Positions 45,375-57,443 of a stretch of 64,000 nucleotides of DNA are shown piece after piece. This DNA comes from Escherichia coli (GTDB lineage Bacteria; Pseudomonadota; Gammaproteobacteria; Enterobacterales; Enterobacteriaceae). A program made the translations under genes and the position numbers. Location of the stretch: assembly GCF_017348835.2 (NCBI RefSeq), contig NZ_CP071375.1; one strand, written 5' to 3'. The first letter of the stretch is position 1; each line of letters opens with the position of its first letter. The notes beneath the pieces were generated by a model. That model saw only the letters and a program-made list of their open reading frames with translations, was not told the DNA's origin and did not search any database.

Positions 45375-45608
45375 ATGAAATCAAAAGACACCCTAAAGTG
45401 GTTCCCTGCGCAGCTTCCTGAAGTAAGAATTATCCTAGGGGATGCTGTAGTGGAAGTAGCAAAACAGGGAAGACCTATCAATACCAGAACATTGCTTGAT
45501 TACATTGAAGGAAACATAAAGAAAAAATCATGGCTGGATAACAAAGAATTATTACAAACAGCGATATCAGTTCTTAAAGACAACCAAAATTTAAATGGTA
45601 AAATGTAA
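45375..45608 (+). CDS. ydfK: Prophage cold-shock-associated small protein
   Basis: ORF starting MKSKDTLKWFPAQLPEVRIILGD after AAGGAA. Confidence 0.75.
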   Translation: MKSKDTLKWFPAQLPEVRIILGDAVVEVAKQGRPINTRTLLDYIEGNIKKKSWLDNKELLQTAISVLKDNQNLNGKM

Positions 45609-50596: not shown

Positions 50597-50770
50597 CTAG
50601 ATTAAATCAATCTTGATATCATAGCTTTCAAGACCAGTCATTTTTTCCCGTGCAGTAAACTGGATACTGGTAACTTCTTTCCCGGTCTTTTTCTTAAGCT
50701 CAATGATTTTTTTTGTTATATATTCAGAAATATCTGCTTCTGTTTTTGTTTTTAACTCTTCAATGTTCAT
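50597..50770 (-). CDS. gnsB: GnsA/GnsB-family protein
   Basis: 57-aa ORF MNIEELKTKTEADISEYITKKIIELKKKTGKEV...ESYDIKIDLI; GAGG ribosome-binding site. Confidence 0.7.
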   Translation of the reverse strand: MNIEELKTKTEADISEYITKKIIELKKKTGKEVTSIQFTAREKMTGLESYDIKIDLI

Positions 50771-50942
50771 CATTTCCTCTTTTAGTCTGTTATGACTGTC
50801 CTGGTACACAGTAGTGTCAATTATATGGAGCAAACGTATAAAAGATAAGATGAAACATCGCAATAATCAACATACGACGGTCTAAATTTCACACAAACAG
50901 ATAAAAATGATTATCATTTATTATCAATGCATTAGAATCAAA

Positions 50943-51173
50943 TCAATTCAAGAGTCTCATTGCTGCTTCCAGAATTTCTTCTGAAGTTACATGTCGATCC
51001 GCTGCTACATAAATGACTTTATGATCTCCGGTCAGAGATGGAAACCCTGCAGCCATTACAGTGAGGTGTGTTGTTTCGCCATTTGGATATTCACGCATGA
51101 TGGTGTTAACTCCGGTCATCACTGGCACTACCATTGCTGGTTCAGAGTTAAAAAAAACTATTATTTTTTTCAT
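50943..51173 (-). CDS. Small prophage protein (YnfN-like); start codon uncertain
   Basis: ORF 50943..51212 with several possible in-frame starts. Confidence 0.4.
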   Translation of the reverse strand: MKKIIVFFNSEPAMVVPVMTGVNTIMREYPNGETTHLTVMAAGFPSLTGDHKVIYVAADRHVTSEEILEAAMRLLN

Positions 51174-51444
51174 AATGTTACCGTAATATGTGAGTATCCA
51201 TCGACTAGACACTAAGCAAAAAAGCTCCCGAAGGAGCCTTCATTTTCACTTTCTTAAATCTAACGACAGATGGCTAACATTTAAGTATTGTGAAATATTA
51301 TCAAATGTAATCATCATTGATTTACAAAAGATACATTTTGCCCCGAAAGGATTTCTGTCAGAAACATCAAAAGATGATGTTCTATACTGAGAACCATGGC
51401 AACACGGGCATCTAAAGTGAATATGGTTTGTAATATTTTCTACC

Positions 51445-51657
51445 TCAAAGTGCCACTACATGAACAGCTGCAGGGCCTTTAGGTCCGTTCTCAATACCAA
51501 ATTCGACTTCCTGATTCTCAGTTAACGTTTTGAAATCGTTGCTCTGAATAGCTGAGAAATGCACAAACACATCTTTGCTACCATCTTTCGGCGTGATGAA
51601 ACCAAAACCTTTTTCAGGGTTAAACCATTTCACTAAACCAGTCATTTTGTTAGACAT
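51445..51657 (-). CDS. cspI: Cold-shock protein
   Basis: 70-aa cold-shock-domain ORF ([21 protein letters not shown]...). Confidence 0.9.
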
Positions 51658-52020
51658 CATTATTACCTTTTGAAGAAGTTAGCCCTTGGGCAGAATGGTC
51701 CGAAAAAAAATATCAGAGAGAAAAACCAACAAGGAAATCTCAAGAGGTACAAATAATAAAATTATAACAATGACTGCTTCAGATAATTTTGTAACAAACC
51801 AGAACACCATTAACGCATGATTAACCAACCATAGCAAGGATTACTTTTGTAAAGAAAAACACACGAATGAAACAATAGCTTTATTTATTAATAAAACGTG
51901 TCATTCTGTCTAATGACCTTTTATCTTACCCTTAAGATTTCAAGGATTTTGACTCATGGAAGAGTCCTTTTTATTTAAATTTCACATTCAGCGCTAAAAA
52001 TAATCCGATTTAATATTAAT

Positions 52021-53050
<1,030 letters not shown>

Positions 53051-53163
53051 GGATATTTATCAGGATTTATCGGCTTCAAATCCCCGGATATGTTAAATCT
53101 TACCTCACCAGTGATGGGCACTGGCGGGAGGAGGATGTCAATCTGATAAACACAGAGGTGACT

Positions 53164-53424
53164 ATGGATTACACAAATCTACCAAAACAAACTTTTGCTG
53201 ATTTAATCGCACTCAGGCAAGCAGTCGTAGCTCTAATCAACTTGTTGCCGGAGAAGGAAAAGGAATTAGTTAAAGCGCTTCTTAACAGAACTGCCGCCGA
53301 TTTTTCATCATATCCACTGACAGATGACCTTGCGGACCTTCCTGAATTAATTGCAGCGTCCGCCATTAAGCTTACTGAAGAGATTTACCCTCCTCAAAAA
53401 TCTTCACAAAATTCCTGCGAGTAA
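53164..53424 (+). CDS. Hypothetical acidic protein on the opposite strand inside the lysis cassette
   Basis: 86-aa ORF from ATG at 53164, preceded by AGAGG at 53153-53157; helical acidic sequence; no homologue recognised. Confidence 0.4.
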   Translation: MDYTNLPKQTFADLIALRQAVVALINLLPEKEKELVKALLNRTAADFSSYPLTDDLADLPELIAASAIKLTEEIYPPQKSSQNSCE

Positions 53425-53923
53425 CTTCAATGCAATAATCGTAAAACGCCGCAAACTGCTCATCGCGGCGTTTTTTTTCATCTTCAGAAGGAATCAGCAC
53501 CGACAATTTTTTATTCAGATCAGCGACGCTGCCCTCCAGTTTTTCAATGGGCGATTCAATATCATCTTTTTCTGACCGCAATGCCGTCGGTGGCGTCTTC
53601 AGAGAACCAGTAATTCTTCCCGGTAGCTTTCCTTTGTAGGTTATCCACACATTCTGCGCCTCTAAAATTATGGGGCGCTTTTCCGGCGACTGCTCATCCC
53701 CTTCACATAACCCGGCAGCAACATCCAGGAAGACCTGTCTGATGCTCATTCTGGCTGCTGCCTCATAAAACTCCAGCGCGGCACCTTCAACACGGTCCAG
53801 CGAGATGTCCAGGTCAAAAATTTCACCGTCAAAGCGTTCTTTGTCCTGTAATGCTAAAGTTACCGTAACTTTATTCTCAAAATTGCGGATCCCTTTCACA
53901 ATCAGTTCATAGTTTTGAGTCAT
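53372..53923 (-). CDS. Prophage protein between holin and endolysin (YdfR-like position)
   Basis: 183-aa ORF; same position as K-12 ydfR, but that gene is recalled as shorter. Confidence 0.5.
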   Translation of the reverse strand: MTQNYELIVKGIRNFENKVTVTLALQDKERFDGEIFDLDISLDRVEGAALEFYEAAARMSIRQVFLDVAAGLCEGDEQSPEKRPIILEAQNVWITYKGKLPGRITGSLKTPPTALRSEKDDIESPIEKLEGSVADLNKKLSVLIPSEDEKKRRDEQFAAFYDYCIEVTRRNFVKIFEEGKSLQ

Positions 53924-53927
53924 TGAA

Positions 53928-54143
53928 TTACTCTCCTCTCGCAGCCTTACGCCTGTCTTCTTTAATCTTGAAATAAAGATTTGTCAGATACGTCAGCAGG
54001 CCAAAAACCAGGCTACCCAGCACACCGATTGCAGCCCACTGTGACGGAGTTACTTTATCGAGTAACTGCAATGCCCAGAAACCAGCATTACCCGCCGATG
54101 TGCCATAGGCAACACCTGTTGTTAACTTATCCATTGATTTCAT
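53928..54143 (-). CDS. essQ: Holin (phage-21 S-type pinholin-like)
   Basis: [71 protein letters not shown]; two TM helices and a charged C-terminus. Confidence 0.85.
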
Positions 54144-54363
54144 ATCCTCACCCCGATGTACACGGATGGTGCAATATGTTTGAAAAGATCGGAGTCTACG
54201 GGGTAGTTTTGACAGCACACGTTGTTCTCAACGGCGCTAAAGAAACATACACATTAAAAATGTGAGTAATTATTTTTTAAAGAAAGTCATATATAAAATA
54301 ATAATACGAGAAATGTTTTCATATTTAGTGTACTGTATACGGCCATTTATACAGGAAAAGCCT

Positions 54364-54534
54364 ATGTCAGAACGTAAAGACTCAAAATCACGCCGTAATT
54401 ATCTCGTTAAATGTTCCTGCCCAAACTGCACCCAAGAGTCAGAACACAGTTTTTCAAGAGTACAAAAAGGTGCCCTTTTGATCTGCCCTCATTGCAACAA
54501 AGTATTCCAGACAAATCTTAAAGCTGTAGCCTGA
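54364..54534 (+). CDS. Small zinc-ribbon protein (56 aa, two CxxC pairs)
   Basis: MSERKDSKSRRNYLVKCSCPNCTQESEHSFSRVQKGALLICPHCNKVFQTNLKAVA; ribosome-binding site AGGAAAAG. Confidence 0.55.
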   Translation: MSERKDSKSRRNYLVKCSCPNCTQESEHSFSRVQKGALLICPHCNKVFQTNLKAVA

Positions 54535-54593
54535 TTGATTTTATTAGTAACAAGTATTTTTTATATTTTAATAATATATTTAAAGCAGATAAT

Positions 54594-54617
54594 AAAAAAC
54601 CCGCCTGAGCGGGTTTG
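54594..54617. terminator. Bidirectional intrinsic terminator
   Basis: A-run + CCCGC-ctga-GCGGG + ttt. Confidence 0.7.
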
Positions 54618-54897
54618 AGATTGTGGTGCTTTTTGTGGGAGTCATCCACTTACGCACTTTGTTTTGCCATGCCAGCAGTTAGCTTCTGCTGTAAAACTAT
54701 TCATGCAGCAAACCTGCACTTCACCACAATGGTTAGCATACTTTTCCTGATTAAGATTTTGCCAAATATGCTGGCCATTGTTTCATGTATTGGACCTCCT
54801 TAATTTTCATTAAAGAGATCCAATATTCACTACTCTGTCCGTATCTCTACTCAGGCATCAGCCTTCTTCGTTATCGTATACAGACGAGCGATGAATT

Positions 54898-55113
54898 TTA
54901 ATCAGTAATGATGACATTTGCTGCTGCAGGACCTTTAGCACCACTCTCTATAGAGAAGGTAACCTTTTGACCTTCAAATAAGGTTCGATAATTATCATTC
55001 TGAATCGCAGAAAAATGCACAAACACATCTTTACTACCATCAACAGGAGAAATAAAGCCGAAACCTTTATCAGCGTTAAACCATTTTACTAAACCAGTCA
55101 TTTTATTTGACAT
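54898..55113 (-). CDS. cspB: Cold-shock protein
   Basis: 71-aa cold-shock-domain ORF. Confidence 0.9.
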
Positions 55114-55411
55114 TCTACATTCCTTAACTTGAGCCTTTCGGCATAAATGGTTTGCATAACAGAAACGACTTCGTACTTAATTGGAGAGACTCAAAGAAGG
55201 AATAAGTGAATAACACCTGAAATGAGAACTGCTTTAGTAAACTACTTCGTATATCGTCTGTTCTTCAAACCGACGCAGTCATTAACTCATAGTTGAACAT
55301 ATGAAGCAATGTTTATTTTAGACATCCAGCCACCTTCAACCCTATCAAAAAAGTAGTTTTCTCCAGGAACGTGTGTATGGTGCACCAGGTTATCAGTATT
55401 AAGGAGTTTTT

Positions 55412-55625
55412 CTGTCCCCTAAAATGACAGGAATTGTCAAAAACTTTGACTACAAAAGCAGCAAAGGTCTTATATTCCCATCCGATGGCGTATCGATGCC
55501 CAGCTTCACGTTTCAGCTCTCAATCTTCGAGATGCAGAAGAAATTACCACAGGATTACGCGTGGAATTTTGCCGGATAAATGGTTCGCGTGGACCTTCAA
55601 CTGCCAATGTTTATCCCGGGATGAG
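55412..55625 (+). pseudogene. cspF: cspF/cspH-like cold-shock gene with a frameshift
   Basis: N-terminal MTGIVKNFD...PSDG is in one frame; the rest ([42 protein letters not shown]) is in another frame that runs on to 55950. Confidence 0.45.
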
Positions 55626-55656: not shown

Positions 55657-55690
55657 CAAAAACCCGCTTATAAGCGGGTTTTCTACTTTT
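55657..55690 (+). terminator. Intrinsic terminator
   Basis: aaaaa-CCCGC-ttataa-GCGGG-tttt. Confidence 0.7.
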
Positions 55691-55788: not shown

Positions 55789-56513
55789 TTATCTCGTCAC
55801 CTTCCTCAATTGCGCTTCCGCGTATGCTTCTTCCTGCCAGCACTTTGTTACCAGTTTACCAATGACGTCAGCATACCCCTTATACCACTGATAATCGGTC
55901 AGGTCTGGTACCAGCTTCTGGACATGACGTCGTGCCAGCGTGGTCGGTAAACGACTAAACCGGTTTCCATTACAACGCCCACAAATCTTATATACCGGTA
56001 CGCCATGAAACCGGGTTCTTTTTTCATCCAGAACAATCCCTTTACCCTTACACCCTCTGCACGCTGTGCTGACTTCGCCCTTACCATGGCAATGCTGACA
56101 TAGTTCCTTTACCCATTCTTCCTTGATTACAGATTCCCCGCGTCTGTAGTGTTTCACCACTTCGCGCAATACATTATAAAATCCCGTACCTGAACAATGC
56201 TCACAGCGAGCCTTACTTGCCGCAGACCTAGAGTAATCAGCAAAGGCAAAATTCACGAGGTAAGGAATAATCTGTAACCGGATTTCTTCACTCAATTTGT
56301 TCAATGTCGGGTTATCCAGTGCCATCGCGTAATTTAGCAGGCCTTCAATCGCAAACTGAGGGTCCTGAACACCAACTTTTGCCAGAAATAAGGCCAACCC
56401 AAGTGGTGCTTTCGACTGCACCATCCCCTGCGCTGCCATTACATCCGTAATTGTTAAACAACCGGTGCCTGTCGCTGGAGCGTCATCGCTCAATTTTGGA
56501 GATTTTGGGGAGT
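55789..56513 (-). CDS. quuQ: Late-gene antiterminator Q-like protein with four CxxCxGxG zinc motifs; 5' end removed by IS629
   Basis: 234-aa ORF starts at TTG 20 bp from the IS end; frame is open right up to the IS boundary at 56514. Sits upstream of the cold-shock morons and lysis genes. Confidence 0.6.
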
Positions 56514-56555
56514 TGAACCGCCCCGGGTTTCCTGGAGAGTGTTTTATCTGTGAAC

Positions 56556-57443
56556 TCAGGCTGCCAGATCATTATTTCCGATGGAAGCATAATAAGCTTT
56601 TTCTGCTTCTGCCGGAGGAATATGGCCCAGCCTTTCCAGCAATCGTCGATTGTTATACCAGTCCACCCACGTTAGTGTGGCCAGTTCCACTTCTGTCCGG
56701 TTTTTCCAGCTCTTACGGTGTATTACCTCCGCTTTGTAAAGACCATTGATGCTCTCAGCCATCGCGTTGTCATACGAGTCGCCAGTACTCCCTGTTGATG
56801 CCAGTAATCCGGCTTCCTTAAGCCGCTGCGTGTAGGCCAGCGATACATACTGAGAACCTTTATCACTGTGATGGATTGTGCCGGACGGCCGACGGGCCCA
56901 CAACGCCTGCTCCAGTGCATCCAGCACGAATGTTGTTTCCATGGATGATGAGACCTGCCATCCCACGATGTATCCGGCGAACACATCAATGATGAACGCC
57001 ACATAAACGAAGCCCTGCCATGTGCTTACCCAGGTAAAATCAGCCACCCACAACTGGTCTGGACGTTCTGCCACGAACTGACGGTTTACGCGGTCGCATG
57101 CGGCAACGGCTTTCCGGCTGACGGTAGTGCGGACCTTTTTACCCCGGAGAACACCGGCAAGTCCCATAACTGCCATGAGACGTGCCACAGTGCATCTGGC
57201 CACTCTGATACCTTCCCGTAACAACTGACGCCAGACTTTACGCACACCGTATACCTGGTGATTTTCATCGTATACGCGCTGTATCTCTTTCTTCAGCCAG
57301 TCATCGTGCTGCGCACGGGCACTGCGTTTATCCGGATGATGTCGCTGTTGCTGACAATGGTAATACGTTGACGGGGCAATATGCAGTTCGCTGCATACCG
57401 GTCCGACCCCGTACTGCTCACGCAGCTTATCCAGCAGTGGCAT
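56556..57443 (-). CDS. IS629-like transposase OrfB (DDE); expected to be made as an OrfAB fusion by -1 frameshift
   Basis: 295-aa ORF; A-rich slippery stretch (GGAAAAAATAATG) at the orfA/orfB overlap. Confidence 0.9.
   Translation of the reverse strand: MPLLDKLREQYGVGPVCSELHIAPSTYYHCQQQRHHPDKRSARAQHDDWLKKEIQRVYDENHQVYGVRKVWRQLLREGIRVARCTVARLMAVMGLAGVLRGKKVRTTVSRKAVAACDRVNRQFVAERPDQLWVADFTWVSTWQGFVYVAFIIDVFAGYIVGWQVSSSMETTFVLDALEQALWARRPSGTIHHSDKGSQYVSLAYTQRLKEAGLLASTGSTGDSYDNAMAESINGLYKAEVIHRKSWKNRTEVELATLTWVDWYNNRRLLERLGHIPPAEAEKAYYASIGNNDLAA

Follow-up and report, generated by a model that had tools for sequence, protein, structure and literature searches.

ynfU of the Qin prophage: a small gene for a predicted zinc-ribbon protein and its association with cold-shock genes

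Locus and gene identity

The window, i.e., the whole stretch of 64,000 nucleotides of Escherichia coli DNA that was analysed, contains in its list of open reading frames a plus-strand frame of 56 codons plus stop, which begins with ATG at 54364 and ends with TGA at 54532-54534. Its translation reads MSERKDSKSRRNYLVKCSCPNCTQESEHSFSRVQKGALLICPHCNKVFQTNLKAVA. The features of the region are as follows:

53928-54143, minus strand: essQ/essD, holin of the P21 type, the divergent neighbour upstream of ynfU (PF04971, E=4.4e-34; annotation)
54300-54352, plus strand: conserved upstream block with the -10-like hexamer TACTGT at 54331-54336 (alignment of 20 loci)
54353-54356, plus strand: Shine-Dalgarno sequence AGGA, 7 nt before the ATG
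54364-54534, plus strand: coding sequence of ynfU, 56 amino acids
54597-54616, both strands: GC-rich hairpin of 8 bp, 62 nt past the ynfU stop
54619-54776, minus strand: conserved structured element between the common hairpin and the cspB stop, a neighbour of ynfU and not a part of it
54898-55113, minus strand: cspB, the convergent neighbour of ynfU (CSD, E=9.8e-32)

In an earlier note, made from the letters alone, a basic 56-residue protein with two CxxC pairs had been placed between the holin and cspB, against the direction of the late operon and behind a good ribosome-binding site. Each of these points was borne out: the flanks were confirmed by the PF04971 and CSD matches, the gene lies on the strand opposite to Q, cspB, holin and lysozyme, the cysteines form two CPxC knuckles in a protein of approximately 6.4 kDa with a calculated pI of 9.4, and the AGGA before the start codon is conserved across genera. 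A true 56-codon gene had been singled out by the sequence-only reader.

The frame is, with near certainty, ynfU (b4776 of K-12). The two products are identical in 55 of 56 residues (98%), the sole substitution being D6 here for N6 in K-12. In MG1655, b4776 occupies 1,640,805-1,640,975 within Qin, between essQ and cspB, and the 757-nt interval from essQ to cspB is 99% identical to that of K-12; orthology is thereby found in sequence and in synteny. The protein scores 107.7 bits against Pfam PF23499 (cut-off 27, E=2.5e-31) and 79.8 bits against NCBIfam NF038384 (cut-off 36). With both model cut-offs exceeded, the CPxC knuckles and the SEHS(F) motif present and orthology established, every property of the YnfU family that was tested was found. 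By megablast of positions 54200-54700, the locus was recovered from 1,652 of 5,426 complete E. coli genomes (approximately 30%), and all matches carry the RefSeq label "ynfU: putative zinc-binding protein YnfU". An Rfam scan of the ynfU region returned no family, its sole match being the cspA thermoregulator (RF01766) on cspB, which spans 54882-55274 as a full match with 158.8 bits.

The locus is therefore already known: the gene is annotated as ynfU, its zinc-knuckle motif and its expression have been public since 2019, and Pfam and NCBIfam each contain a curated model. Overall it is very probably best explained as the known accessory gene ynfU of the Qin cryptic prophage.

The prophage in the window is decaying (52518-53050, 55412-55614 and 55789-57443), with ynfU, cspB and the holin gene intact. 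Compared with the Qin prophage of K-12, the lysozyme gene rrrQ is frameshifted (recovered as two overlapping tblastn pieces), as is cspF, and the Q antiterminator gene ydfT is interrupted by an IS element: it is without its first approximately seven codons and abuts the open reading frame of an IS3-family transposase (rve/HTH_21, 56556-57443). An intact DUF1327 protein of 183 amino acids is encoded at 53372-53923 on the minus strand, at the place where K-12 has ydfR (103 amino acids); in strain H7 the counterpart of the DUF1327 gene is annotated as frameshifted.

Upstream region and candidate promoter

When the upstream regions of 20 loci from approximately 12 genera were aligned, the last 70 nt or so before the gene proved to be conserved, and everything beyond was unalignable. 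The common block ends with GTGTA(T/C)(G/T)GT, followed at intervals by CAGGAA, which is kept in these 20 loci, and by the ATG. Positions G54330, T54331, A54332, G54335 and T54336 are invariant. The hexamer TACTGT (54331-54336) is a candidate -10 element, from which a leader of approximately 20 nt would result; the corresponding -35 region is poor. The promoter proposed by a consensus scan (TTTAAA-18-AATAAT, 54276-54305) was rejected because its sequence is not conserved between genera.

The octamer GAAATGTT lies upstream of ynfU at 54310-54317 and matches one half of the E. coli Zur box consensus. A Zur box was nevertheless rejected at this place, since there is a half-site only and other genera read GAGCTATTT.

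Downstream hairpin and structured element

The hairpin downstream of ynfU has the sequence AAACCCGC-CTGA-GCGGGTTT. A 61-nt piece containing it folds on the plus strand with -21.4 kcal/mol (z=-3.6 relative to shuffled sequences), and the fold on the minus strand has z=-5.5. A consensus terminator scan accepts the hairpin on the minus strand only, where the tail TTTTTTATTAT (UUUUUUAUUAU) provides a strong U-tract; the tail on the plus strand, TTTGAGATT (UUUGAGAUU), is weak. A CCCGC/GCGGG stem with variable loops is found 62-110 nt past the ynfU stop in Escherichia, Citrobacter, Raoultella, Klebsiella and Superficieibacter. At the Klebsiella loci the next gene is co-directional and no convergent cspB is present; the hairpin is kept all the same, and the eight plus-strand bases behind the stem include four to five T. 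Given this persistence in Klebsiella, where cspB is missing, the hairpin is probably to be assigned to ynfU. For E. coli, the most likely reading is an intrinsic terminator used in both directions, by ynfU on the plus strand and by the cspB transcript on the minus strand. Of the strong terminator that had been claimed as ynfU's own, the hairpin is real and conserved with the gene; its good U-tract lies on the strand of cspB in E. coli, and the terminator is probably shared rather than exclusive to ynfU.

A second palindromic hairpin, AAAACCCGCTTATAAGCGGGTTTT, is located after cspF at 55659-55682. It has A/T runs on either side, shares the AAACCCGC/GCGGGTTT core of the ynfU hairpin and is probably a bidirectional terminator as well, possibly the tR' of the late operon.

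The element at 54619-54776, approximately 150 nt in length, is conserved in Escherichia, Enterobacter, Kosakonia and Kluyvera as well as in phage PHB10. With RNAalifold, five helices with 31 pairs were obtained, seven of the pairs with compensatory changes (for example, GUGAUG/CAUCAC to GUGGUG/CACCAC); 94.9% of the cells are paired, as against 20-57% when the partners are slid. The same stretch can be read as a cysteine-rich peptide, RCDEMQDCCMNSLKAEANCL, and in PHB10 a product of 41 amino acids is annotated. This minus-strand frame between ynfU and cspB was rejected as coding: the substitutions show no codon-position bias (509/531/587), conservation continues beyond the stop codon, and neither the window nor K-12 has an in-frame start. 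Since the element ends at the hairpin and a U-run, it looks like a structured 3'UTR of cspB or an sRNA derived from that 3'UTR. No Rfam family covers it, and NC_000913.3 has no ncRNA annotation at this place.

On the minus strand, a strong Shine-Dalgarno sequence GGAGG (54795-54799) stands 8 nt before an ATG (54784-54786), giving a frame of 11 codons, MKQWPAYLAKS (54751-54799), of which PAYL matches the N-terminal part of the 41-residue frame of PHB10. This short frame could be what is left of a gene that used to be longer, or else a small upstream open reading frame inside the structured element.

Conservation and predicted fold of YnfU

The two knuckles of YnfU are C19-P-N-C22 and C41-P-H-C44; a further cysteine, C17, precedes the first. 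An alignment of 36 diverse homologues was used, including distant members of 30-42% identity. Residues C19, P20, C22, L39, C41 and C44 are invariant in it, and S26-E27-H28-S29, K35, P42 and F48 are conserved to at least 90%. Loss of the cysteines in homologues had been named beforehand as the result that would speak against the zinc ribbon, and the ligand cysteines are retained throughout the 36 sequences. Since Atlantibacter and every distant member have another residue in place of C17, this cysteine is not a zinc ligand. The median dN/dS of orthologues relative to ynfU of the window is 0.095, and the protein is, judged by these substitutions, under strong purifying selection. The Pfam match (E=2.5e-31), a dN/dS of approximately 0.1 and four invariant ligand cysteines together place ynfU far beyond chance as a coding sequence.

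A word-indexed protein search gave 49 clusters, all of them enterobacterial, and an exhaustive profile search over 1.84 billion representatives gave only 43 proteins at E<=0.001, by which the YnfU family is very narrow.

A first AF2 model of YnfU was poor (pLDDT 61). The model calculated from a widened alignment reaches a mean pLDDT of 73.5 (block means for residues 11-50: 78-84), and in it the strands 14-18/25-29 and 38-40/47-49 bracket the two CPxC turns. Four short beta-strands around two knuckles, as modelled, are the layout of a zinc ribbon, and the four cysteines are predicted to hold one structural Zn2+ as Zn(Cys)4; the literature searched contains no report of Zn2+ binding by YnfU. The structure and profile matches in the PDB are all weak and to generic ribbons: PA0128, LysW, the NZF of Vps36, L37Ae, S27, a ribosome-bound zinc-finger protein of Methanosarcina, and Tim15. 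A Foldseek search against the PDB gave nothing at E<1. None of these matches is significant, and none suffices for the transfer of a function. The zinc ribbon proposed earlier thus agrees with the knuckle-at-turn geometry of the model and with nearest folds that are zinc ribbons throughout, at weak scores, zinc binding itself being a prediction.

Genomic neighbourhood across species and phages

The neighbourhood of ynfU was surveyed at 62 loci from species-representative genomes by tblastn with Qin proteins. The following counts were obtained:

CSD gene within 1 kb of ynfU: 45 of 62 loci
Convergent cspB-like gene within 1 kb downstream of ynfU, the most frequent partner: 30 of 62 loci
ynfN or ynfQ (YmcF-like) just upstream of ynfU: 24 of 62 loci
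At least one gene of the cold-shock cluster within 1 kb of ynfU: 49 of 62 loci
Qin-type holin, lysozyme or Q within 5 kb of ynfU: 5 of 62 loci

At the remaining 13 loci, no gene of the cold-shock cluster comes within 1 kb of ynfU. A second lineage of Enterobacter lacks an adjacent csp gene, as do the most distant members; at one distant locus, CSD and YmcF-like genes lie 2 kb off. By gene calls and Pfam labels, the chromosomal surroundings are ordinary ones and differ from genus to genus:

Kluyvera: thrS-infC-rplT, followed by ynfN-like, YmcF-like, YnfU, CSD and CSD genes, and then pfkB
Raoultella: ynfU adjoins LysR/acetolactate (bud) genes
Enterobacter: ynfU adjoins pmrD
Lelliottia: ynfU lies between an ABC transporter (livF) and pgsA/uvrC, with a YnaE homologue
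Klebsiella: ynfU adjoins a PTS operon

Of 50,697 phage records, no more than 8 contain a gene for YnfU. Three Qin-like isolates (HannyBb, 2H10 and Tritos) have an identical YnfU; in HannyBb, the one of them inspected for its flanks, the entire Qin arrangement is present. In Klebsiella phage ST13-OXA48phi12.4, ynfU is divergent from the holin gene; in phage PHB10, ynfN-ynfU-cspB-cspF stands beside the integrase gene and umuDC, with no lysis genes near it. In the Enterobacteriaceae, ynfU sits in a small mobile cold-shock block (ynfN, ynfQ/YmcF-like, cspB-like and cspF-like genes), which occurs on chromosomes, at several sites unrelated to one another, as well as in Qin-like phages. The neighbour counts and the phage contexts show that the stable unit is ynfU with the cold-shock genes and not ynfU with the holin.

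In the window, the gene order of Qin is gnsB-ynfN-(ynfR)-ynfQ-cspI-[Rz-lysozyme-DUF1327/ydfR-holin]-ynfU-cspB-cspF (50600-55614). This order minus the lysis cassette equals that of chromosomal cold-shock islands of Citrobacter and Kluyvera (compared at locus L016, 3500-5534, locus L087, 4403-6204, and locus L003, 805-5260). From this resemblance in gene order, such islands may be relics of the cargo of Qin-like prophages. The genes cspB and cspI form direct repeats flanking ynfU and the lysis genes, and recombination between them could delete the block. Approximately 9 kb from ynfU, at 45375-45605 on the plus strand, there is a small gene of the YnaE/YdfK-type cold-shock family, the product of which is 62% identical to the Lelliottia YnaE, encoded there directly upstream of ynfU.

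Expression and published record

ynfU was found in 2019 through ribosome profiling of stalled initiation complexes (Weaver et al., 10.1101/511675). Tagged with SPA on the chromosome, YnfU exceeded all other newly found small proteins in abundance in MG1655 grown in LB at 37 C, the only temperature used, and was detected in the uninduced strain in both exponential and stationary phase (10.1101/511675). That work had already remarked on the pair of CPXC zinc knuckles and on PA0128 as a moderate match in threading (10.1101/511675). The gene was independently recovered by PIRT-seq (PMC12350097). Absence of expression had been set down beforehand as a ground for discarding the gene; the tagged protein (10.1101/511675) and the PIRT-seq result (PMC12350097) both speak for its expression. 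Later papers merely repeat the possible metal binding or list YnfU as uncharacterised, and no function of YnfU is reported in the literature searched. Of the neighbours of ynfU, YnfR and ynfQ have been reported to be cold-induced.

Discussion

The following arrangement is proposed. ynfU would be transcribed autonomously, from a promoter of its own to a terminator held in common with the convergent cspB, and would be read antisense to the late/lysis transcript and independently of it. The product would act as a small adaptor that binds a negatively charged partner through the invariant SEHSF-R-VQKG face and the basic N-terminal tail; RNA or the ribosome would be the most likely partner, a host protein a less likely one. 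The physiological setting would be that of the Csp RNA chaperones, i.e., cold or translational stress. That YnfU binds RNA or the ribosome as a basic zinc-ribbon adaptor within a mobile cold-shock cargo block is put forward tentatively. The comparative analysis has brought out the linkage to cold-shock genes, tight and repeatedly relocated, which for YnfU, an abundant E. coli orphan, is the first clue to a function. The gene itself offers nothing new as a discovery, and the clue is a modest but testable one.

A role in cold shock has to contend with the abundance of YnfU at 37 C in LB, which is unlike the behaviour of the cold-induced CspB or YnfR; in view of this abundance, co-location need not mean co-regulation. 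The csp linkage, which weakens in the most distant members of the family, could also reflect the shared descent of one island rather than functional coupling. The wider proposal, in which YnfU would be a working part of a mobile cold-shock module (an RNA- or ribosome-binding zinc-ribbon factor beside CspB and CspF) and Qin-like lambdoid phages would have seeded the chromosomal csp islands, is regarded as rather doubtful. The islands match the late-region cargo of Qin (gnsB-ynfN-ynfQ-cspI and ynfU-cspB-cspF) with the lysis cassette removed.

Ranked after binding of RNA or the ribosome, and on the unlikely side, is the explanation that YnfU is a protein-binding regulator, i.e., a host-modulating moron product that benefits the lysogen and does not bind nucleic acid. 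A small bacterial zinc-ribbon protein that inhibits or redirects a host enzyme is known in YacG, which acts on gyrase. The small size of YnfU, its single zinc module and invariant surface patch, and the classic moron position of its gene between Q and S fit this explanation, as do its expression in the lysogen (10.1101/511675) and the expectation that most small proteins bind larger ones (Weaver et al., 10.1101/511675). The location of most ynfU copies on the chromosome, outside prophages, argues in the other direction, and the strong basic charge and recurrent csp neighbours point slightly more to RNA. Moreover, none of the PADLOC defence/anti-defence models matched YnfU, and the PHROG search with YnfU returned no family above noise; on the same two results a defence or anti-defence role was rejected.

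Three further explanations are improbable on account of the strand of ynfU, the selection at the level of the protein, the persistence of the gene at sites from which lysis genes are missing and the fact that no Zur box is conserved. The first of these makes YnfU a part of the lysis or late programme of the phage, for example a holin modulator or a late-gene regulator. In Qin, in the HannyBb-like phages and in ST13-OXA48phi12.4, the gene is indeed immediately upstream of and divergent from the holin gene, but it is on the strand opposite to the late operon, has a Qin-type holin, lysozyme or Q within 5 kb at just five of the 62 species loci, is encoded in so few of the phage records (8 of 50,697), is expressed in uninduced K-12 (10.1101/511675) and has remained intact while the prophage of the window decays (Q truncated by an IS element, lysozyme frameshifted). 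A role in lysis is accordingly considered very unlikely.

Equally hard to sustain is the explanation that transcription itself, or an antisense RNA, is the main function and the peptide secondary, with convergent transcription from the ynfU promoter blocking or silencing late read-through into the holin gene in the lysogen. The place of ynfU directly before the holin gene and its antisense orientation relative to the Q-dependent late transcript would suit such a function, as would a hairpin that probably works in both directions; the strong purifying selection on the protein (dN/dS of approximately 0.1), with its invariant ligands, and the persistence of ynfU at chromosomal sites where there is no holin to protect are difficult to reconcile with it. 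Least probable of all is a function in zinc homeostasis, as a zinc store or chaperone under Zur control, for which the "zinc-binding" annotation and the resemblance of GAAATGTT to half a Zur box could be cited, since only the half-site exists and is replaced by GAGCTATTT in other genera, a lone Cys4 site in a ribbon is typically structural, and no zinc-uptake genes are near ynfU at the loci examined.

Comparison with known systems

YnfU can be set beside three families with two CxxC pairs. The DNL-type zinc finger (PF05180; Tim15/Zim17/Hep1, PDB 2e2z), an Hsp70 escort, is the top profile match in the PDB (E=0.009) and has in common with YnfU the pattern C-x2-C-x2-S-x-H-x2-S...KG-x2-LI-x-CP-x-C. 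Membership in zf-DNL was rejected at 13.4 bits against a cut-off of 27; YnfU reads NKVFQTNL after C44 and contains no D-N-L. The N-terminal ribbon of PhnA/YjdM (PF08274; P. aeruginosa PA0128, PDB 2akl) is a CxxC...CxxC ribbon of similar size, and PA0128 is the top Foldseek match to YnfU (39% identity over 38 columns, E=1). Here, too, membership was rejected, as PF08274 scores 22.4 bits on YnfU, under its cut-off of 30.8 (profile E=0.39); the C-terminal domain of PhnA is absent from YnfU. YmcF/YnfQ (PF23641), cold-shock-associated and encoded next door, resembles YnfU in small size, in the four-cysteine pattern CxxC...CxxC and in neighbourhood; that the two are paralogues was rejected on an hhalign probability of 2.7% over seven aligned columns.

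The textbook morons of lambdoid phages are bor, lom and stx. ynfU is like them in being additional to the phage genes proper, placed between Q (ydfT) and the holin gene, in being dispensable as judged by its presence in 8 of 50,697 phage records, and in its expression from a repressed prophage (10.1101/511675); its conserved flanks may hold regulatory signals of its own. The description of ynfU as moron-like, given in the earlier note, holds for its prophage position and may hold for its autonomy; it does not hold for the distribution of the gene, which is mostly chromosomal and found among cold-shock genes rather than lysis genes. Unlike the lambdoid morons between Q and S, ynfU is antisense to the late operon, belongs to a cold-shock cargo of several genes and occurs mostly outside prophages.
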